Below, in pieces: positions 470 to 46,985 of a DNA stretch of 64,000 nt. Position 1 is the first letter of the stretch, and each line of letters starts with the position of its first letter. The stretch covers positions 32,001 to 96,000 of IMG/VR virus record IMGVR_UViG_3300031718_000001. The stretch is one strand, 5' to 3'. The notes beneath the pieces are model-generated. The model saw only the letters and a list, made by a program, of their open reading frames with translations, made no database searches and was not told where the DNA came from. The stretch is from a virus. Both the position numbers and the translations under genes were made by a program.

Positions 470-535
470 CTGGTGCTCCCTCGCTGTCGTTCCCTTGCAA
501 GACCAACAATAGCAAGAAAAGCTGTATTGAGCAAA

Positions 536-793
536 TCAGCGCGCTGTAATCTCCGAGATCGCACGGTCGAGCGCCCGTTCGCGCTTGGCGTGGTTGCGGC
601 ACCAGGAGGAGCAGTAGCGTTCGCGCGGCCCGAGCTGGTCCGTCGCGGGGATGGTGCCTTCGGAGATCATCTTGGAGCGGGTCTCGCGCACAACGTCCAA
701 GTCCTCAAAGCAGTTCCGGCAGTGCCGGTCACACTGGCAGTGGTAGTCGTGGAAGCCGCCGGGTATCCCGTACATCCAGATCGTCTCGGCCAT
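536..793 (-). CDS. Small Cys-rich (Zn-binding) hypothetical protein
   Basis: CxCxxxCxxC and CSSWC motifs; TGATG coupling to the upstream ORF. Confidence 0.65.
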   Translation of the reverse strand: MAETIWMYGIPGGFHDYHCQCDRHCRNCFEDLDVVRETRSKMISEGTIPATDQLGPRERYCSSWCRNHAKRERALDRAISEITAR

Positions 794-990
794 CAGTGCA
801 CCGGGTACTTCGGCGAGTTCTTGAGGTAGTAGGTGTGGGCGCCGCTCCTGCTGCGGTAGCGCTGGAGGTTGGCCCGTGCGGCGGTCAGGAACTGCGCCCT
901 GGTGATGTGCAGCACGTCGCAGTAGAACGAGGCGGAATAGCCCTCGAAGAGCGTTACAGCGGCGATCACGCGCTCGGCTATGGTTTGCAT
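793..990 (-). CDS. Small hypothetical protein (MQTIAERV...)
   Basis: ATG immediately after the stop of the PAPS-reductase-like gene; coupled to the next gene. Confidence 0.55.
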   Translation of the reverse strand: MQTIAERVIAAVTLFEGYSASFYCDVLHITRAQFLTAARANLQRYRSRSGAHTYYLKNSPKYPVH

Positions 991-991
991 C

Positions 992-1963
992 TCAGCAGTT
1001 CCAGGACTTGGCCACGGCAACCTCGCCGCGGGCAGTGAGGGCTTCGGCCTCGGCGATGATGTCGCGCATCGTGAAGTCGCGGCCGAAGGTGTGACCCATC
1101 TTCTCTTCGGCCTCGGCCCGCTTGACGGCGCCATCGGGGTCGAGCTGCGCGGCCCGGACCAGGGCCTTGCGGCCGGCCAGGACGCAGAACCGGCAGGACA
1201 GCCTGGGCATCCCGGCGTCGTACACCCAGTGATGCCGGACCCCGCTGGCCTTGATGTCGGCCCACACCTGGTGCTCGGTGAGGCCGTGAATCGGCAGCCA
1301 GTTGTCGCAGTCCTTAACGGTCTCGTTGGTGACGCGCTTGTTCTTCTCGAAGGAGACGAGCTTCGCCCTGGCAGGGCTCTCCTGGGCGCGCATCCCCATG
1401 CAGTTCAGGATGCGTACGCGGCGGACGCGGGCCTTGCAACCTTTGGGAAGCATCGCCTTCCACGCGCTGCGCAGCTCGTCGCACAGCATGGTGATCACGG
1501 TGCCGATCGGGTCGCGCTTCATGTCAGAAGTGCAGAAGCGGTTTTCGAGGTTTGGCCACTTGCCGTGGTTGATGATGTGCTGGAGGAGCGTGATAGGTGC
1601 GTCGTTGTTCTCGCCCTTCTGCACCTTGATGAACCGCACGCCATAGTGCGCGGCGTGCTCCCGGGCCAGCTCCTCGGTGCCCGCCCACTCGTCCTCGGCA
1701 CCTAGGTCGGCGAAGACGCAGACGATCTTGCGACGGTCTAGTCCAAGGATGTCCACCAGGCGCATGAACAGCCGGAGCATCGTCTGGGAATCCTTGCCGC
1801 CGGAAATGTTCAGCACGTACAGGTCGTAGGTGGGCAGCATCAGCAGGTCGAGCCCGGCTAGCGTGGCCGCCGCGAAGATGCTCTCTATCTCAGCGATGAG
1901 TTCGAGGTCAATCGCCTGCGCGATGATCTTGTCGGTGATCTTCGGGTAAGTGGTGCTGCTCAC
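992..1963 (-). CDS. PAPS reductase-like / adenine nucleotide alpha-hydrolase (DndC/SspD-like) protein
   Basis: SGGKDS PP-loop, RFCTSDMK, GMRAQESPAR and RLSCRFC motifs; likely GTG start at 1963 after CAGGAGG SD. Confidence 0.85.
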   Translation of the reverse strand: MSSTTYPKITDKIIAQAIDLELIAEIESIFAAATLAGLDLLMLPTYDLYVLNISGGKDSQTMLRLFMRLVDILGLDRRKIVCVFADLGAEDEWAGTEELAREHAAHYGVRFIKVQKGENNDAPITLLQHIINHGKWPNLENRFCTSDMKRDPIGTVITMLCDELRSAWKAMLPKGCKARVRRVRILNCMGMRAQESPARAKLVSFEKNKRVTNETVKDCDNWLPIHGLTEHQVWADIKASGVRHHWVYDAGMPRLSCRFCVLAGRKALVRAAQLDPDGAVKRAEAEEKMGHTFGRDFTMRDIIAEAEALTARGEVAVAKSWNC

Positions 1964-2028
1964 TCGCTGCCTCCTGGCTGTCGTTCCTTGCAAGACCTAC
2001 ATTAGCAAGAAAAGCTGTATTCACCAAA

Positions 2029-2466
2029 TCAGAGTGACCAGTAGCCGTAGACGCAGCGGAGGCCGTCGCGCCGGGGATCGGCGATGTCGTAGACCACCCC
2101 GTCGATGACCGCCGCGTAGTGGCGGCTCAGTGAGACGATGATGCGCCCGGCAGGCAGCTCATCGGCTCGCAGGTGGACCTTGCATCCCTGGCCGACCAGC
2201 ATGGTCGGCGTCCAGGTGAAGCCGAGCGATGCCATGTAGTCCTTGAACCACTTGCGACTCACGTTGATCCCGTTGCTGGCGCTGCGGTGCCCGCTGATGC
2301 CGTAGCTGCGGCTCGTCTTGCGCTCCCGCGCGCACCCCTCGGCGAGCGCGTCATAGACCTGGGGATAGGGCAGTCCGGTGACGATGGCTATGGCCCGGGT
2401 CACGCAGTCGCTGGTGAGGCTTCCCCATCCCGCGGCGCTCCGGCCGCCGTCGTTGTACCTGTACAT
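2029..2466 (-). CDS. Conserved phage hypothetical protein (DCVTRAIAI motif)
   Basis: ORF coupled to the upstream gene; NDGG...DCV.RAIAI.TG..Y..VY motif. Confidence 0.7.
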   Translation of the reverse strand: MYRYNDGGRSAAGWGSLTSDCVTRAIAIVTGLPYPQVYDALAEGCARERKTSRSYGISGHRSASNGINVSRKWFKDYMASLGFTWTPTMLVGQGCKVHLRADELPAGRIIVSLSRHYAAVIDGVVYDIADPRRDGLRCVYGYWSL

Positions 2467-2468
2467 GA

Positions 2469-3385
2469 TCAGTCCTGGACCCAGCCCTGGTCACGGACGT
2501 AGCCCGCCAGCTCGCGCCAGTTCTCGCTGACGGCCGTGAGCACGGCCCGGTCGCCTTCCATCTCGTCGTGGTCGATGTCCCACTGGCCGCGGTCGAGGTG
2601 CTCCAGGATCTTTCCCTCGATCAGCGCGTCCAGGGTGGGCGGGTCCAGGGCGTCCAGCTCCCAGGACAGGTCGCCGTACTCGGCGATGTAGTCGTTCGCC
2701 CGGCTGTCGGTGACCTTGGCGTAGTTCGGGGGCGGGTTGTACGCCTCCACCTGGTCCATGTTCAGCGCGATGCGGTCGATCTCGACACTCGACCCGAAGG
2801 TGTACAGCCGGTCGCCGATGTCGCGGGTCATGTCGATCCCGCTGGGGTCGTGGTCGCCCAGGTGGATGATGAGGCACTTCTTGCCGGTGCGCTCCTGCTT
2901 GCGCAGCCGCATGGCGGCTCGCCACATCTCGGACTGGCTGACGTAGCCGCGGCACGAGAAGTACGGCACCAGCCAGCGGTCGGCCGGGCGGGACACCACG
3001 TCGGCCAGGCCTCCTTCTCGACCCACACCTCGACATACCACGCCTGGTTGTTCCACAGATGCGTGCGGTACTGCGCGGCGACCGCATCGACGATGGACTC
3101 CGGATCGTCCCACATGGCCAGTTGGGCGAGGTTGCGGGTGCGGTCCTCCAGGTGGTTCCAGTCGATCAGGCCAGCCAGCCGGGCATCATTGACGATCGAG
3201 CCCAGGCGCTTGTAGCTCTGGATGTTGTTGGTCAGCCAGTCGCGGCTGACGAACTGGTAGTAGAGCTGCCGCAGGGTGAGGTTGTATCCCTGGGCCGCGT
3301 AGTCCTCGCAGATCTGGGCGGCGCGCTCGATTACCTCCATCGAGCCGGCCGAGAACCTGGTGTCTGCGTACTTGATCTTCGGCAT
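2469..3385 (-). pseudogene. TOPRIM-domain (Topo VI-A/JetD-like) phage protein split by a 1-nt frameshift near 3010
   Basis: N-half TLRQLYYQ...EVWVEKEA (ORF 2828-3397) continues in another frame as LADVV...SCRGY...HLGDHDPSG...ELDAL (ORF 2469-3113); GAG GCC TG GCC lacks one C. Confidence 0.75.
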
Positions 3386-3402
3386 GATGGTCTCCATTCG
3401 GT

Positions 3403-4197
3403 TCAGTCGAGAGAAGCCACTGTCTCGGCACGCCAGTTAAGGGCGTACTCCAGGCAGTTGTTGCAGTGCTGATGGGTGTGTCCCTCGATCGGGGGCTCAT
3501 AGCGCGCGTCGAACGACCAGGCGGCCGAGTCCGCGCTCACGAGCATGCGGCCGTACATCGGCAGGCCGGTGCGCTTCACGCCGAATCCGTGCAGCCGCAG
3601 GTGCGACAGCTCGGTGACGATCCGCAGGATGCTTGTCGTGTTCGAGCGCCGGCAGATGCTGCCCAGGCCGACCACGGGGAACGTGGTGAGGTCGAAGCCG
3701 GCGTCCTTGTACATCTCCTCGTGCCGCAGGTACTCATAGCCTGCCCAGCCCTGGAGCACGGGGATGACCGGGCACGGCCCGTCGCCGACCTGCGGCCACA
3801 GCTCCAGGGCCTGGACGTAATTCTCGATGGTGAGGTGCTGGTGGACGTACGTGCTGAACCCGGTGGCCCGCCTGATGTTCTCCTCGCACATGTAGTCCAT
3901 GGGGGAAGCCCATTTGAGCTGGCCGATCTGGTCCTGGTATCTCGCCACCCGCTCCAGGTACTCCAGCACGGTGAACCGCCAGCCAGGCGGCGAGCCGAAG
4001 GTATGCAGGCGCTGCTCGTCCGTGTGCTTGAGCTGCATGAAGCCGCCCGAGTCGAGCGCCCACGGGCCGAGAGCCCTGGGCAGCGTAGCGCGCCCGGACA
4101 GGTTCTGGTCAGCCACGAACAGGGGCACGTCCGTCCTCGCGAGGAAGAACGGCTTGTGCGTGGTGAGCATGAACTCGCAGGGCGCGAAGCTGCCCAT
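3403..4197 (-). CDS. Queuine tRNA-ribosyltransferase-like / DpdA-like (deazapurine DNA transglycosylase-type) protein
   Basis: WALDSGGF, DYMCE, PVLQG, VGLGSICRR, LHGFGVK, SADS.AWS motifs and C-terminal HCNNC; ATG at 4197 after GGAGG. Confidence 0.7.
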   Translation of the reverse strand: MGSFAPCEFMLTTHKPFFLARTDVPLFVADQNLSGRATLPRALGPWALDSGGFMQLKHTDEQRLHTFGSPPGWRFTVLEYLERVARYQDQIGQLKWASPMDYMCEENIRRATGFSTYVHQHLTIENYVQALELWPQVGDGPCPVIPVLQGWAGYEYLRHEEMYKDAGFDLTTFPVVGLGSICRRSNTTSILRIVTELSHLRLHGFGVKRTGLPMYGRMLVSADSAAWSFDARYEPPIEGHTHQHCNNCLEYALNWRAETVASLD

Positions 4198-4300
4198 CTG
4201 CCCTCCAGTGCTATCGGTTCCTTGCAATGCCTACATTAGCAAGAAGCCCTGTATTGAGCAAATCAGGGTCCGGCCGCCGTCCAGCCGGTAGCTTGCTGGG

Positions 4301-5494
4301 ATGACAATCGCCACGCCGCTGAGCACGTCATCCCGCTGGATCGTGGACAGGAACGGCAACCGGGTCAAGCTGGCCGGGGCCAACTGGGCCGGAGCCCACG
4401 AGGACCTGATGGTGCCCGGCGGCCTCGACCGCCTGAACCGGTCGGCTATCGCCGGGCAGCTTGCGGCGTGGGGCTTCAACTCGGTCAGGTTCCCCTTCGC
4501 CGGCTCGACCGTCCAGGACACGGCACCCGTGATCCCCGCGGCCGTGGCCGCGAACCCGGACCTCGTTGGCATGACGCCATGGCAGGTCTACCAGGCCTGC
4601 GTAGCTTCGCTGACGGCCGCGGGCATCATGGTGATACCGAACTTCCACCTTCTCTACCGGGGGTGGTGCTGCTCACTTTCCGATACCAATGGCCTGTGGT
4701 GGAACAGCAACTGGTCATATTCGACGTTCCTGTCGATATGGCAGCAGGTGGCCACGGCGTTCGCGGGCAACCCGCTGGTCATCGGATTCGATATCAAGAA
4801 CGAGCCGCGGCAGGCGACGATCAACGGCCAGGTCCTCAACCCGAGCTGGGGCGACGGCAACACCGAGACCGACTTCCGCTGGCTCTACCAGCAGGCCGGC
4901 GATGCGATCCTGAAGATCGACCCGGCCGCGCTGATCTTCTGCGAGGGCATCAACAGCTCGGGCAACCTGACCGGAGTGGCCAGCTACCCGGTCCAGCTCA
5001 GCTCGCCCGGCCACGTTGTCTACAGCATCCATGACTACCCGCAAGGATGGCCCGCCACTGAGACCCAGGCCGCGTACATCGCGAGCCAGCACAGTAACGC
5101 CGGGTACATCACGAACACGGGAGAGCCGTACACCAGCCCGCTATGGGTCGGCGAGTTCGGGGTGGCGAACGACTCTATGGCCGCCATCGGCGCCGGGCCG
5201 GTGAGCTACGGCGACGGCCTGGGAGCCGGCCCGGTCAGCCAGTCCTACGGTAACTGGTGGTCGAACTTCCTCGCCTGGGCCTACGAGCGGGCTGACCTCG
5301 ACTGGTGCTGCTGGCACCTGAGCGGGACGCATGTCCAGGGTACGACCCCCTCGACCAACCAGCTCCAGTACAACCTGGGGGACAGGTGCTGGGACGGGCT
5401 CTATGCCCAGGACTGGAGCGGCCCCGCTAATCCCGCGGTGATCGAGGCGCTCCAGGCGATCATGGCGCCGATCTCGGGGCCGGGGGTCAGCTAG
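4301..5494 (+). CDS. Glycoside hydrolase family 5 (cellulase family)
   Basis: GFNSVR, catalytic NEP acid/base, YSIHDY and WVGEFG nucleophile motifs; no signal peptide visible. Confidence 0.88.
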   Translation: MTIATPLSTSSRWIVDRNGNRVKLAGANWAGAHEDLMVPGGLDRLNRSAIAGQLAAWGFNSVRFPFAGSTVQDTAPVIPAAVAANPDLVGMTPWQVYQACVASLTAAGIMVIPNFHLLYRGWCCSLSDTNGLWWNSNWSYSTFLSIWQQVATAFAGNPLVIGFDIKNEPRQATINGQVLNPSWGDGNTETDFRWLYQQAGDAILKIDPAALIFCEGINSSGNLTGVASYPVQLSSPGHVVYSIHDYPQGWPATETQAAYIASQHSNAGYITNTGEPYTSPLWVGEFGVANDSMAAIGAGPVSYGDGLGAGPVSQSYGNWWSNFLAWAYERADLDWCCWHLSGTHVQGTTPSTNQLQYNLGDRCWDGLYAQDWSGPANPAVIEALQAIMAPISGPGVS

Positions 5495-31824: not shown

Positions 31825-32016
31825 GTGATCCACGCGCAGTGCAAGAACTGCGGCACCTGGGCCATCATCACCGACGGCAGCGACGTGCACGCGGCCGTCG
31901 ATGCGAAGGGCTGCACCTGCTGCCCGATCGATCACGCCCACGGCCAGGCGGCCAACGAGACCGGCACCCCGTGCCGGCCGCTGCTGATCACCGCCATGGA
32001 GCCGGTGGAGGCCTGA
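31825..32016 (+). CDS. Small Cys/His-rich protein
   Basis: CxxC and CTCC..HAH motifs; strong SD. Confidence 0.6.
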   Translation: MIHAQCKNCGTWAIITDGSDVHAAVDAKGCTCCPIDHAHGQAANETGTPCRPLLITAMEPVEA

Positions 32017-36536: not shown

Positions 36537-41201
<4,665 letters not shown>

Positions 41202-43244: not shown

Positions 43245-46200
43245 TTGCGTAAGTACGCAAGCCTGGAAGTGCTGGAGTCCTGGCGGGTTCCGCAGCAGGC
43301 AGGTCCCGCTGGCCTGCGGAAGGCGGCCCACCGGGTCGCGTTCGACTACACGCCGCGGGCCGGGTATCTCTACGTCCGGTCGAGGATGATCTCCTCCCGG
43401 ACCAACGACAACCATGACACCTTCCCCGCAGGCGAGATCGAAAAGGGATACCGGACGTTCCTGGGCAAGCCGGTATTCATCAACCACCACAACGCAAATC
43501 ACCGGCGCGCTCGCGGGGTGGTCGTCGCTGTCGCCCTGCACCGTGACCGCAACCCGGACAAGAGCCCCGACACCTGGGTCGAGGGGCTGATGGAGATCGA
43601 CGCCCAGCGCTTCCCGAAACTGGCCCAGGCAATCCTGGCGGGCAAGGTCAACCGCACCAGCATGGGCGTCGATGTCGAGTGGTCGCGCTGCTCAGCATGC
43701 GGGAACAAGGCCACCTCCCCGGCTGAGTACTGCCACCACCTGCCAGCACTCAAGGGCAAGAAGATCCGCAAGACCAACCCGGCTACCGGCAAGGTCGAGG
43801 AGCGGCTGATCCACGAGATCTGCGCCGGGTTGTCGTTCTTCGAGAACTCGCTGCTGGTCGAGGAGCCGGCTGACCCATCGGCTTATGTCCTTGATGCACC
43901 TGATGCACGTGGTCTACGAGGTATGTCAGGGTTCGACGTGACTCCACGTACGGCCAGCGCGGATCGAGGCGATGGCCTGGTCACTCACTCCGTACCGGCG
44001 GCCAATGTCCCCCAGGGTGAGCTGCCCTCTTCGTGTGCTTCCCTTCCCAACCGCCACCTGGGGAAGCAGTTCACGCTTGATAACCCGAACGTCTGCTTCG
44101 GTAAGCGTGGCGAACGGGTTCCTGGAGCCCGGCAGGCTGCGCCCCTTGGCCACCATGTCGGCGGAGTTGAAGGCGTTGGTGCCCAGGAGCCAGTGCAGGG
44201 GGTTCATGCACGGTTTCCAGTCGCAGGCGTGGCAGACCACCTGGCCCGGCGGAATGGGACCGCGCACCAGTCTCCATCCGTACCGGTGAGCACGGACACT
44301 CGACCGCTTCGAGTCCGACAGCGAGAAGCGCGGGTATCCGCTGTCAAAGAATCCTCCCGTCCACGGGTTGCAGAATCCCGGTCCAGCCGTGAAGTCGATC
44401 GAGGCGAAGTACCGCTCGATCTCCGGGGCCGTCCTTATGAAGCGTCCGTCCAGTTCGGACCTGCTGACCATGGTGTTAATACTACCGCCTACTTCCTGGG
44501 CCGGCCCGATGCCCGCGGCCTGGACAAGACGGCCGCGGCCAAGCGCGAAGGCGGCGACCACCCGTTCTTCAAGGAACACCCGGTAAGCGCTGCCAATATC
44601 GTTGCCGCTTACCACGACACCACCGACGACGAGAAGTCCCTCGGCGACCGGTGGTATGCCGATGCCCACCACGTCGCAAAGGGGATCGCCGGAGGAGATG
44701 CAGCCAAGGGAGCCGGGCTGCTGTCCGCCTACTCACCGCAGACGGCATGGCCGGTCAACATGTTCAACGCCAGCCGGGCGGCTCAGGGCGATCCGCCTGG
44801 ACCCGGCAGCGGCGCCATGGGCACGCAGCAGAAGTCGGCGATGCACATCCTCGGCGGCGAGCATCACTCGCAGGTGCTGAAGGCCCCGAAGACAGCCGCC
44901 TTCGCTCACCTGATCGAGCACGGCGGAGATACGGCGGCCGACGAGAAGAACGGCACGCACAAGGTCGTTGTTGACCGGCACGCGCTGTCGGTCGCCGTCG
45001 GCCGCCGCCTGGGCAAGGAGGAAGGCAGCAAGGCTCCGCTCGGCCAGACCCAGCACTACGAGCACGTCGCCCAGGCCTACCGCGATGCAGCAAGCCTCCT
45101 GTCCGATGCCACCGGGCGGAAGATCAGCCCGCACCAGGTTCAGGCCGCTACCTGGCTGCGCCAGATCCGCAAGAACCATGAAGAGGACAACTCCGGCAAG
45201 GGCGGCGGAGGCCTCGGAGCCGGCCGCGGCCGGGTGCAGATGCAGAACAACTCCAAGACCAGGTGGGAGCAGCATCACAAGCAGCACCATCCCGGCGGTA
45301 TCGCCGAGGAGAACATGCACTATCACGGCAGGCGGGTGCTGGCCTACGGCGAGACCCGGGTGCCGCCGCAGGTGGACACACTGCGAATGGAGGAGTGCCC
45401 GGTCTGCGGCGAGCACGACGTGTGGTCCGGCGAACGCTGCCCCGTGTGCGGATTCATCGTCCCGCCCAGCCTGTTCCGCGATCCCGACGTGACCAAGGCC
45501 CAGCAGGTCCGCCAGGAGCTGGACCAGGAGGGCGAGGTCGTCACCCAGCCGGGCGCTCCCGGTGACCCGGCCACGCAGCAGATCGGCTCCGGCGAGGATG
45601 CCGACAACCAGCTCATGAACCCGGACCAGGTAGCCCCCGACGGGACGCCAGGCGTCCAGGGCGAGGGCGGCCCGGTGCCCGCGGCTGACACAGACGGGCT
45701 GCCGCCGCTAGCCCAGCAGGGCGAGCCAGGTGACACGGGCGAAGAGGCTCAGGACGAGCAGGCCGAGGAGGACGAGGAGGCTGACGCCGAAGAGGAGGCC
45801 GAGGGCCAGGAGCTGGAAAACCAGGGCGAGGAAGCCCAGCCCGGCGTGCAGCCGGACCTCATGTGCTCCGCGTGCGGGGCCGCTTTCGCGACCGATATGG
45901 CCGCCCAGCCGGGTACGCCGTGCCCGGCCTGCCGCCAGGGGTCGCTGCAACCTGCGGGTGGACCCCCAGAAGGTACAGAAGACCCCGACGCCGAGGACGA
46001 AGAGGACGAGGACGAAGAGATGGCAGGAAGCAAGACGGGCGCCGCGCTCGCTCGCGCTCAGTCGCACCGTATCGCCGTCCTGACCGCCGAGAACGAGGTC
46101 CTGACGGAGCAGCTCCGCTTCCTCGCCTCGGCCGCGGGCGTAGACCGGCACCTGGACGCGATCCGCTCGCAGGTGCTCCGCAGGCACGCGGATGTGCTCA

Positions 46201-46985
46201 ACCCGGCCAGCCCCGTGCCGGACCCGCCCGAGGCCCCGGCAACCGAGAGCACCGAGCAGGCGCTCCAGCCGCTGGCCCAGGATGACCCGTCGCGGCCGGG
46301 TGCCACGCCGGGCGCCAACGCCGGGGTCGCAGCCGAGCAGATGACTACGGCGATCACGCCGGGAGTCGAGATGCAGACTCCGCCGGCCACCAACCTGATC
46401 GACGTGACGGCACCGGTCACCGGCACCAACCCGAGCCAGGACGGCGGCGTGCCGATCCAGCAGCGGCGGATCGAGACCGATGTGAGGGTCGATCCTGATC
46501 CGCTGAAGGCTCACGGGCCTGGCATCGGCGGCCTGGGCGACAACGGCGCCGCCTTCCCCTGGATGCTGGAGGCCCAGCAGCCGCAGGGCCAGCAGCGCCA
46601 GGGGGTTCAGACCGGCCAGGGGATGCGCGCTGCTGCGCTCAATGGCGGCAGTCACCTCGCTCCGCCGGATGAGGCAGCCACCGCCAACCGGACGTTCGCC
46701 TCGATCCGGCTGGCCAGGCTGCGGATCGCCACCGGCTCGGTGCAGGGCGATGAGCTGATGGTCGCCGAGCGGATCGAGAAGGACGCCTCGCTGCCGACGG
46801 CGCTGATCGAGCACGAGATCGCGGTGCTGTCCCGGATGCCGCAGCAGCCGGCCTACCCGCAGCAGCGGCAGATGCAGCGCGCCGGGGCTGCCAGGCAGGC
46901 ACCGTCGCTCGCCTCGGTCGGCGCCTCGATGGGATACGCGCCAGCGGCCATGGACGACATGGACGGCGCGGACCTCTTCCTCTGA
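43245..46985 (+). CDS. Capsid maturation protease / scaffold polyprotein with an internal DUF7178-like domain and an in-frame insertion
   Basis: N.N.D.F, F.GKPVF.NH, TSMGVDV..S.CS.C and FFENS.LVE.PADP protease motifs; position before the decoration protein and MCP. Confidence 0.85.
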   Translation: MRKYASLEVLESWRVPQQAGPAGLRKAAHRVAFDYTPRAGYLYVRSRMISSRTNDNHDTFPAGEIEKGYRTFLGKPVFINHHNANHRRARGVVVAVALHRDRNPDKSPDTWVEGLMEIDAQRFPKLAQAILAGKVNRTSMGVDVEWSRCSACGNKATSPAEYCHHLPALKGKKIRKTNPATGKVEERLIHEICAGLSFFENSLLVEEPADPSAYVLDAPDARGLRGMSGFDVTPRTASADRGDGLVTHSVPAANVPQGELPSSCASLPNRHLGKQFTLDNPNVCFGKRGERVPGARQAAPLGHHVGGVEGVGAQEPVQGVHARFPVAGVADHLARRNGTAHQSPSVPVSTDTRPLRVRQREARVSAVKESSRPRVAESRSSREVDRGEVPLDLRGRPYEASVQFGPADHGVNTTAYFLGRPDARGLDKTAAAKREGGDHPFFKEHPVSAANIVAAYHDTTDDEKSLGDRWYADAHHVAKGIAGGDAAKGAGLLSAYSPQTAWPVNMFNASRAAQGDPPGPGSGAMGTQQKSAMHILGGEHHSQVLKAPKTAAFAHLIEHGGDTAADEKNGTHKVVVDRHALSVAVGRRLGKEEGSKAPLGQTQHYEHVAQAYRDAASLLSDATGRKISPHQVQAATWLRQIRKNHEEDNSGKGGGGLGAGRGRVQMQNNSKTRWEQHHKQHHPGGIAEENMHYHGRRVLAYGETRVPPQVDTLRMEECPVCGEHDVWSGERCPVCGFIVPPSLFRDPDVTKAQQVRQELDQEGEVVTQPGAPGDPATQQIGSGEDADNQLMNPDQVAPDGTPGVQGEGGPVPAADTDGLPPLAQQGEPGDTGEEAQDEQAEEDEEADAEEEAEGQELENQGEEAQPGVQPDLMCSACGAAFATDMAAQPGTPCPACRQGSLQPAGGPPEGTEDPDAEDEEDEDEEMAGSKTGAALARAQSHRIAVLTAENEVLTEQLRFLASAAGVDRHLDAIRSQVLRRHADVLNPASPVPDPPEAPATESTEQALQPLAQDDPSRPGATPGANAGVAAEQMTTAITPGVEMQTPPATNLIDVTAPVTGTNPSQDGGVPIQQRRIETDVRVDPDPLKAHGPGIGGLGDNGAAFPWMLEAQQPQGQQRQGVQTGQGMRAAALNGGSHLAPPDEAATANRTFASIRLARLRIATGSVQGDELMVAERIEKDASLPTALIEHEIAVLSRMPQQPAYPQQRQMQRAGAARQAPSLASVGASMGYAPAAMDDMDGADLFL
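43878..44483. mobile_element. 606-nt in-frame HNH insertion carrying a recoded duplicate of its target
   Basis: AYVLDAPDARGL (A/T-ending codons, 43881) and AYFLGRPDARGL (G/C-ending codons, 44487) are 606 nt apart. Confidence 0.75.
43926..44471 (-). CDS. HNH homing endonuclease (HNH_3 type + C-terminal HTH), antisense inside the protease gene
   Basis: C..W.G....GY, AHRY.W....GPIP.G..VCHACD...C.NP.H...GT...N..DM..KGR motifs; TAGTAT -10 box 7 nt before the ATG at 44471. Confidence 0.9.
   Translation of the reverse strand: MVSRSELDGRFIRTAPEIERYFASIDFTAGPGFCNPWTGGFFDSGYPRFSLSDSKRSSVRAHRYGWRLVRGPIPPGQVVCHACDWKPCMNPLHWLLGTNAFNSADMVAKGRSLPGSRNPFATLTEADVRVIKRELLPQVAVGKGSTRRGQLTLGDIGRRYGVSDQAIASIRAGRTWSHVEP

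Follow-up and report, generated by a model that had tools for sequence, protein, structure and literature searches.

An antisense HNH nuclease gene in codon register within a phage prohead protease polyprotein gene, and a host frame that appears to be kept open through it

In a 165-kb Bxz1-like phage of soil actinobacteria, a gene for an HNH homing endonuclease lies on the minus strand inside the plus-strand gene for a head polyprotein, and the frame of the polyprotein continues through it. The window analysed here is a stretch of 64,000 nucleotides (nt), positions 32,001 to 96,000 of the IMG/VR record IMGVR_UViG_3300031718_000001, which is a virus record of 165,085 bp with direct terminal repeats and 68% G+C. 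How can a nuclease gene reside in the middle of such a coding sequence? We describe below the locus and its empty counterpart, the state of the host frame in relatives of the element, the ends and the translated complement of the insert, and what these suggest on its way of life.

The locus and its empty site

The host open reading frame (ORF) of 1246 amino acids (aa) has zero stops across the insert (Table 1). It is homologous to the 1286-aa gp97 of Bixzunavirus LinStu, and its first ~211 aa are ~45% identical to the N-terminus of the 1286-aa gp97 of Bxz1-type mycobacteriophages, while megablast against cultured phages gave zero matches. DUF7178 occupies aa 449-639, and a long acidic, scaffold-like stretch is also found downstream. 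The N-terminal domain matches phrog_18299, head maturation protease, at E 3e-22 and phrog_2774 at E 4e-56. Its AlphaFold model has a predicted local distance difference test score (pLDDT) of 80-95 over about aa 30-200 and 70-79 over aa 201-230, and Foldseek places the T4 gp21 protease (5jbl, probability 1.00) at the top of the matches and herpesvirus assemblins next. It is to be noted that the E-values of these gp21/assemblin matches are weak (2e-3), although the list is consistent, and the assignment rests on sequence family together with fold; on both, the domain is predicted to be a prohead protease of the T4 gp21/herpes assemblin fold.

A cassette of 606 nt (43878-44483) splits this gene at the codon boundary PADP|TAY, where the protease domain ends. 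As the first-pass annotation of the window had claimed, the cassette carries a complete 181-aa HNH gene on the opposite strand with its own TAGTAT -10 box and an ATG start, and the gene stands in codon register, codon for codon, with the plus frame. The product is matched by HNH families of PHROG with E-values ranging from 9e-20 to 1e-9, led by phrog_1872 (9e-20) and phrog_826 (3e-19). H81, C83, D84, C88, H93, N102 and D105 are invariant across the lineages compared below and N90 is nearly so. The predicted product can thus be placed in a known class of homing endonucleases; its closest cultured relatives by tblastn are at most 39% identical, and an NCBIfam search with it gave no match.

A -10 box standing 7 nt before the ATG is the layout of actinobacterial leaderless genes. 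The same arrangement, TANNNT exactly 7 nt before the start codon, is found in 11 of 12 family members, one of them being the free-standing L053 of another phage; the hexamer has a background frequency of 0.0013 per position. Scans for sigma-70 -35/-10 promoters and for intrinsic terminators found none, and the conserved element is the -10 box only. Transcription of the HNH gene probably starts from this -10 box and yields a leaderless mRNA.

An exact empty site was seen in a contig of an unrelated soil run, X5, in which position 43876 is joined to 44484 with one G between them, and which continues past the joint into the sequence of an 86%-identical relative, the closest of the insert-less ones (P0002). 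Two insert-less homologues, P0005 and P0007 (L020 and L019), read PADPTAYFLGKPDDRGL at this place. The first-pass annotation had expected insert-less homologues to align as DP|TAYFLG, and this junction is what both homologues (PADPTAYFLG) and the X5 contig present. As for the filled allele, contigs from a third sample span both junctions with 0-4 mismatches, and therefore the arrangement is not an assembly chimera.

Table 1. Features of the polyprotein gene and its insert (window coordinates)
Feature	Position	Strand	Remarks
Head polyprotein ORF, 1246 aa	TTG 43245..stop 46985	+	Protease domain, insert, DUF7178, Zn-ribbon, acidic scaffold-like C-terminal part
Prohead (capsid maturation) protease domain, predicted	43245..43877	+	Ends in FFENSLLVEEPADP; PHROG and AlphaFold/Foldseek
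Segment missing from the empty allele	43877..44483	.	607 nt replaced there by a single G; net 606 nt = 202 codons
First, recoded copy of 13 host codons	43878..43916	+	SAYVLDAPDARGL; contiguous with the protease domain
Three-codon spacer RGM	43917..43925	+	Between the first copy and the HNH stop codon
HNH homing-endonuclease gene, 181 codons + TGA	43926..44471	-	ATG at 44471, codons down to 43929, stop TGA 43926-43928; PHROG
Read-through filler of the host frame, ~186-190 aa, putative	43926..44483	+	No stop; rich in R/A/V/G/P/S
RTAS in the filler	43947..43958	+	Reverse complement of HNH residues A-G-R-T of the conserved IRAGRTW segment
Leaderless-type promoter of the HNH gene, putative	44472..44484	-	-10 box TAGTAT 44484-44479, 7 nt 44478-44472, then ATG
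Second, native-style copy of the 13 codons	44484..44522	+	TAYFLGRPDARGL; GC3 0.92
Native linker DKTAAAK	44523..44543	+	Contains KTAA 44526-44537
GC3, G+C content at third codon positions.

The host frame in eleven lineages

Is an open frame across the complement of a nuclease gene more than an accident of base composition? In the genes of this phage, the in-register antisense frame is open in 33-45% of 181-codon stretches, while the other two antisense frames are open in 1-2% of them. The first-pass annotation had itself cautioned that in-register antisense frames are often open in G+C-rich DNA, and for a single genome this caveat is correct. Since the openness in one genome is at chance level, relatives were gathered for a comparison between lineages. 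The query was the HNH rather than the long ORF, which kept the sample free of any bias from the state of the host frame, and protease-based loci were added too. Eleven lineages with an embedded gene were obtained, namely the window, L002, L003, L004, L012, L015, L018, L036, L050, L051 and L052; the HNH proteins of the first eight are 43-80% identical to one another, and those of L050, L051 and L052 are 55-79% identical to that of the window. In every one of the eleven the HNH gene occupies the same place, antisense and in register, and no stop interrupts the host frame over the full length of the nuclease gene.

The codon usage of the nuclease genes bears on how this comes about. The codons TTA, CTA and TCA sum to zero in all eleven embedded HNH genes, whereas five free-standing relatives, which come from G+C-rich phages, hold 7, 3, 3, 1 and 0 of them (Fisher p 0.003); an HNH gene without these three codons leaves the host frame open. 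The free-standing relatives L005-L009 were also considered as codon-usage controls and rejected for their low G+C content (57-59%). In the first eight lineages CTA and TCA make up 0 of 168 four-fold Leu/Ser codons, while A-ending codons account for 13% of the other four-fold families. A second mark is seen in CCA, GCA and ACA, whose complement TGN reads Cys or Trp in the host frame: embedded genes have 0-2 of these codons each and free-standing genes 4-13 (Mann-Whitney p 8e-4). GGA and CGA, whose complements read Ser, are common in embedded genes. The avoidance of stop complements in orthologous HNH genes, which the first-pass annotation had proposed to look for, is thus present throughout. 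It had also named plus-frame stops in orthologous inserts as an observation that would speak against its reading; no such stop occurs within the HNH gene of any of the eleven lineages, but one lineage, L018, has a stop two codons past the HNH ATG.

The lineages are diverged. Third codon positions of the HNH genes differ between lineages at 0.30-0.63 and first and second positions at 0.11-0.42; since third positions change most, it is the HNH protein that is under purifying selection and not the filler encoded by the complement. On the other side of the insert, about 13 different right junctions lead into different downstream modules, all of them in frame with the exception of L018. In this lineage the host frame is open through the HNH gene up to the stop mentioned above, and the next gene, of 1308 aa, starts in an overlapping TGATG.

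The open frame might nevertheless be a by-product of G+C-rich antisense DNA, the protease being simply truncated by the insertion and the downstream part being made from an internal start or being dispensable. The chance level of 33-45% in this genome would permit this, some relatives are indeed stand-alone proteases of 241-260 aa (P0128, P0148), and in L018 the downstream part is a separate gene. However, a by-product would hardly leave all eleven lineages open with zero antisense-stop codons where four of five free-standing relatives have such codons, nor would it keep some 13 distinct right junctions in frame, and even L018 keeps its frame open through the whole HNH gene for a TGATG restart that requires arriving ribosomes. 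We regard this explanation as quite unlikely. The open host frame through the antisense nuclease gene appears instead to be conserved and selected in the eleven lineages, an excess over chance that comes from the comparison between lineages and not from the single genome. The two strands would then form an antisense dual-coding pair, both frames being open and each having its own selective signature, purifying selection on the HNH protein and avoidance of stop, Cys and Trp codons in the host frame.

Ends of the insert and its translated complement

The left end of the cassette is a second version of host sequence. The claim of the first-pass annotation that two copies of the site lie 606 nt (202 codons) apart, the first in A/T-ending and the second in G/C-ending codons, agrees with both the coordinates and GC3. 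In the first copy 11 of 13 codons end in A or T (GC3 0.15), while the 16 codons upstream of it have a GC3 of 1.00, and it differs from the consensus of insert-less alleles at 17 of 39 nt. The second copy, which starts exactly 606 nt after the first, has 6 mismatches to that consensus in 39 nt, and the two copies differ from each other at 16 of 39 nt. AlphaFold predicts the first copy to form a strand (214-220) beside the protease domain, plus a short helix, with pLDDT 70-79, and this fits the further claim that the copy restores the C-terminus of the protease.

Such recoding seems to be a regular companion of the nuclease gene. All nine alleles with the nuclease gene that were examined have a recoded site, with GC3 of 0.15-0.77 and 15-30 mismatches to the insert-less consensus, while typical empty alleles have GC3 of 0.85-1.0 and 3-10 mismatches at the same 13 codons. 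The change in sequence starts sharply at the insertion point, and the DNA upstream of it is 93-100% identical to that of empty relatives. A native second copy, full or partial, is retained in the window, P0003, L002, L003 and L052, but the target duplication is not universal, as alleles such as L012 replace the native site instead. Also variable is the junction with the nuclease gene: the spacer of the RGM type is not present in L002 and L003, in which CTA, the Leu codon of RGL, itself forms the HNH stop. From this pattern we infer that recoding would give immunity against the nuclease or would prevent deletion between the two copies. Two empty alleles, L033 and L042, have a partly recoded site (GC3 0.62; 14 and 25 mismatches to the insert-less consensus, respectively) and may represent former carriers or resistant alleles. 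At the right end of the insert, PADH (CCT GCT GAC CAT) was considered as an extension of the target duplication and was rejected, because the same codons encode the conserved HNH N-terminus (MVSR) in lineages without a second copy.

What does the host frame encode within the insert? The filler is not conserved as a protein between lineages, its AlphaFold model has pLDDT 30-47 with no confident structure, and searches against Pfam and PHROG gave no family match, no Hint or intein family among them. A search by cmscan against Rfam at E<=10 gave only noise on either strand and no intron family. These results bear on the possibility that an intron or intein which has escaped recognition excises the insert from the RNA or from the protein. 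Introns and inteins are the usual home of homing endonucleases, and Rfam covers described families only; yet neither an open in-register frame nor in-frame junctions would be required by an intron, an intein should hardly consist of an unconserved filler that is predicted to be unstructured and has no Hint match, and the ends of the insert vary between lineages. We therefore take removal by an intron or intein to be highly improbable. With the nuclease on the opposite strand, no Rfam match and no Hint family, the HNH gene is apparently not housed in an intron or intein, which is in line with the splicing-free arrangement that the first-pass annotation had put forward, and the filler would be translated.

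If translated, the filler might still be removed afterwards. The first-pass annotation had the protease itself cut it out at RTAS near the start of the insert and at KTAA just after its end, both matching a putative maturation cleavage motif. The two tetrapeptides are where they were said to be (Table 1), and the motif class is enriched: [KR][TAKS]A[AS] occurs 5 times in the polyprotein (43245-46985) and 4 times in a neighbouring 1554-aa protein (36537-41201), the two head polyproteins, against 0.8 +/- 0.9 in shuffled sequences. In addition, RG[LM] is followed by x-[KM]-[AT]-A-[SA], of the x-K-A-A-S type, in 75 of 100 homologues, insert-less ones included. The fold of the protease is of the gp21/assemblin type, and herpesvirus assemblins cleave at Ala|Ser. 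Thus [KR][TAKS]A[AS] is a candidate maturation cleavage motif, and cleavage there is possible. Excision of the filler at RTA|S and KTA|A is another matter. RTAS is forced by the conserved HNH C-terminus together with codon choice and is not present in L004, L012 and L018, KTAA belongs to the native linker outside the element and is found in insert-less alleles too, and the protease family has no mapped cleavage site. Removal of the filler is thus not supported in the form given by the first-pass annotation, and its excision by the phage's own protease is a tentative, rather doubtful possibility.

Mobility, mode of life and known counterparts

The distribution of the HNH gene is patchy. Only 4 of 24 related IMG/VR loci carry it, and in a protease tree of 32 sequences the 10 rows with the nuclease gene cannot be explained by fewer than 8 gains or losses, which is not below the number for shuffled labels. 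L012, which carries the gene, and the empty L034 are 90-100% identical in DNA up to PADP, and the foreign tract has sharp boundaries in both the window and L012. Occurrence in some close relatives and not in others, at a site whose empty form is exact, is the picture given by free-standing homing endonucleases, and patchiness together with apparent deletion scars is as expected of a mobile homing element. Four relatives, P0018, P0056, P0013 and P0026 (L023), have the look of deletion derivatives: P0018 has lost the nuclease but still has the first copy, the beginning of the filler and some of the second copy, and P0056 retains a shortened insert.

Two further loci show other HNH genes in similar surroundings. 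One is P0139 (51-kb contig), whose ORF of 401 aa continues from the same protease site (…PADPTAVVLDVDSSQLSKAAAK…) in frame into a different HNH domain, in sense orientation, with which the ORF ends. The site is apparently a hotspot for nucleases of more than one family. The other is L053 (3501-4160), where an unrelated phage has a free-standing relative of 48% identity in antisense orientation, flanked by the capsid gene on one side and by other head genes on the other. Its ATG, too, is preceded by TANNNT and 7 nt, but the gene contains 7 antisense-stop codons and 13 NCA codons.

It might also be supposed that the HNH is no longer purely selfish but a domesticated phage gene, used, for example, in competition with co-infecting relatives or in DNA packaging, since each of the eleven lineages has it intact and subject to purifying selection, and family members occur among head genes, always antisense (L053). 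This is unlikely in view of the patchy distribution with near-identical empty alleles, the existence of scars and truncated copies, and the different, sense-oriented HNH after the same site in P0139. Domesticated and selfish roles are compatible in any case, and one does not exclude the other.

We consider it rather likely that the insert is a mobile free-standing HNH cassette, placed where the protease domain of a protease-cargo-scaffold polyprotein ends. The nuclease gene, antisense and in register, would be expressed from a leaderless mRNA starting at its own -10 box, while the host gene would stay unspliced and ribosomes would read through the reverse complement of the HNH gene, adding a structureless filler between the protease domain and the remaining polyprotein. 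Selection would keep the host frame stop-free, since no other way of expressing the 830 aa downstream is evident. The recoded left end would retain the predicted strand beside the protease domain, and at the same time it would change the DNA presumably recognised by the nuclease and lower homology with the native copy. Cleavage of the empty site, immunity of the filled one and the timing of expression are parts of this scheme that we infer.

Several observations weigh against this mobile read-through cassette. The arrangement is known here from sequence alone, and in one genome alone an open in-register antisense frame has the 33-45% chance given above. The lineages share ancestry, their four-fold sites being 26-68% identical pairwise, so that the counts are not fully independent, and the free-standing controls are few and distant (33-48% identity). 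The fusion as such can be dispensed with, as is seen in L018. The incongruence between HNH and protease trees is borderline in the approximately unbiased (AU) test (p-AU 0.05 and 0.018), with groups chosen after seeing the tree, and is counted as a hint only. As for the nuclease itself, its AlphaFold model is poor (mean pLDDT 53), protein and profile searches of PDB sequences gave no solved relative, and Pfam HNH_3 (PF13392) matches at E 7e-5 with 22.8 bits, under the curated cut-off of 24.8. When four family members were scanned with PF13392, three matched at E<=0.01 and none scored above the HNH of the window. Most homologues of 30-60% identity carry PF13392, and therefore the sub-cut-off score reflects divergence.

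The cassette can be compared with several known ways in which nuclease genes and other selfish DNA reside in genes. Free-standing homing endonuclease genes that split phage genes are mobE in Aeh1 nrdA, mobA at T4 gene 60 and seg at gene 43 (PMC2988022). Like them, the present element would be an intron- and intein-free nuclease gene in a conserved, critical phage gene, with its own expression signals and a sporadic distribution. Those genes, however, are left as two separately translated halves, whereas here the nuclease is antisense and the host frame is one ORF through it; only L018, via its TGATG restart, resembles the split solution. In fungal mitochondria, nucleases fused in frame to the host, with part of the host exon duplicated, have been described (PMC12308204). 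They likewise sit inside a coding region and bring an imperfect copy of the displaced host segment, but they are sense LAGLIDADG or GIY-YIG ORFs, fused to the host or placed in introns, while in the phage the HNH gene is on the opposite strand and it is its complement that the host would read. With inteins the cassette would share an in-frame insertion translated with the host protein, but it has no Hint domain or conserved splice residues, its nuclease lies outside the translated insert, and the insert is probably unstructured and not self-excising.

HNH endonucleases of the I-HmuI type are encoded by group I introns. The class of nuclease, the homing logic and the phage host are the same as here; no intron model fits the present insert, however, and an intron would gain nothing from an open in-register frame with in-frame junctions. 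Another likeness is offered by Rickettsia palindromic elements, which are selfish DNA within ORFs that is tolerated as an in-frame peptide at a permissive site; they differ in being short non-autonomous repeats that are not known to have a gene of their own. The segD gene of T4 is located between genes and, unlike the HNH gene of the window, is not known to be nested in a coding frame. It resembles the latter in being a free-standing endonuclease gene in antisense orientation to the surrounding genes (PMC2988022). Literature searches found no report of an antisense nuclease gene read through by the host frame.

Homing endonuclease genes are thought to survive in essential genes only by means of introns or inteins or by splitting the gene, and the arrangement described here would need no splicing. 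We lean somewhat towards seeing in it a third way, besides introns and inteins, for such a gene to live inside an essential coding sequence, namely antisense and in register, with a codon choice that permits the host to read through, and with breaks that may drive the shuffling of modules. The element would pay its way by keeping its own reverse complement translatable, a constraint that marks the codon usage of the nuclease, which has no stop complements and almost no Cys/Trp complements. With this mark, the pair would be a case from nature in which long antisense dual coding has an evident reason behind it.

The surroundings of the site are of interest as well. Homologues of the protease number hundreds in soil metagenomes; common to them are the protease domain and the motif PADPTAYxLGxPDxRG(L/M), beyond which they hold very different modules. 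These variable modules resemble head-packaged polyvalent proteins (PMC5512222). Among the homologues P0002-P0120, the modules past RG[LM] differ widely even between close relatives and include Zn-ribbon EPDFRDH units, NUDIX, GNAT, Arr-ms and others, and the boundary of this variable region is the nuclease insertion site. That the element sits where head-cargo modules vary most suggests that nuclease-driven recombination may shape which enzymes these phages package.

Annotators should be aware that gene callers may miss a nested HNH gene or truncate its host gene. In L018 the gene calls miss the HNH, and in L051 they include the HNH but place the start of the host gene after it, in spite of a frame that is open for 1586 aa. 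For L050 (GCA_026340885.1, JAPEOV010000003.1, 152,561 bp), a contig of phage size from the assembly of Streptomyces sp. NBC_01242, NCBI annotates the HNH (3501-3998) nested within a 1376-aa ORF (510-4640). This lineage points to a Streptomyces host and possibly to a culturable system, and a bench test would be possible with strain NBC_01242 if it is obtainable and yields phage.

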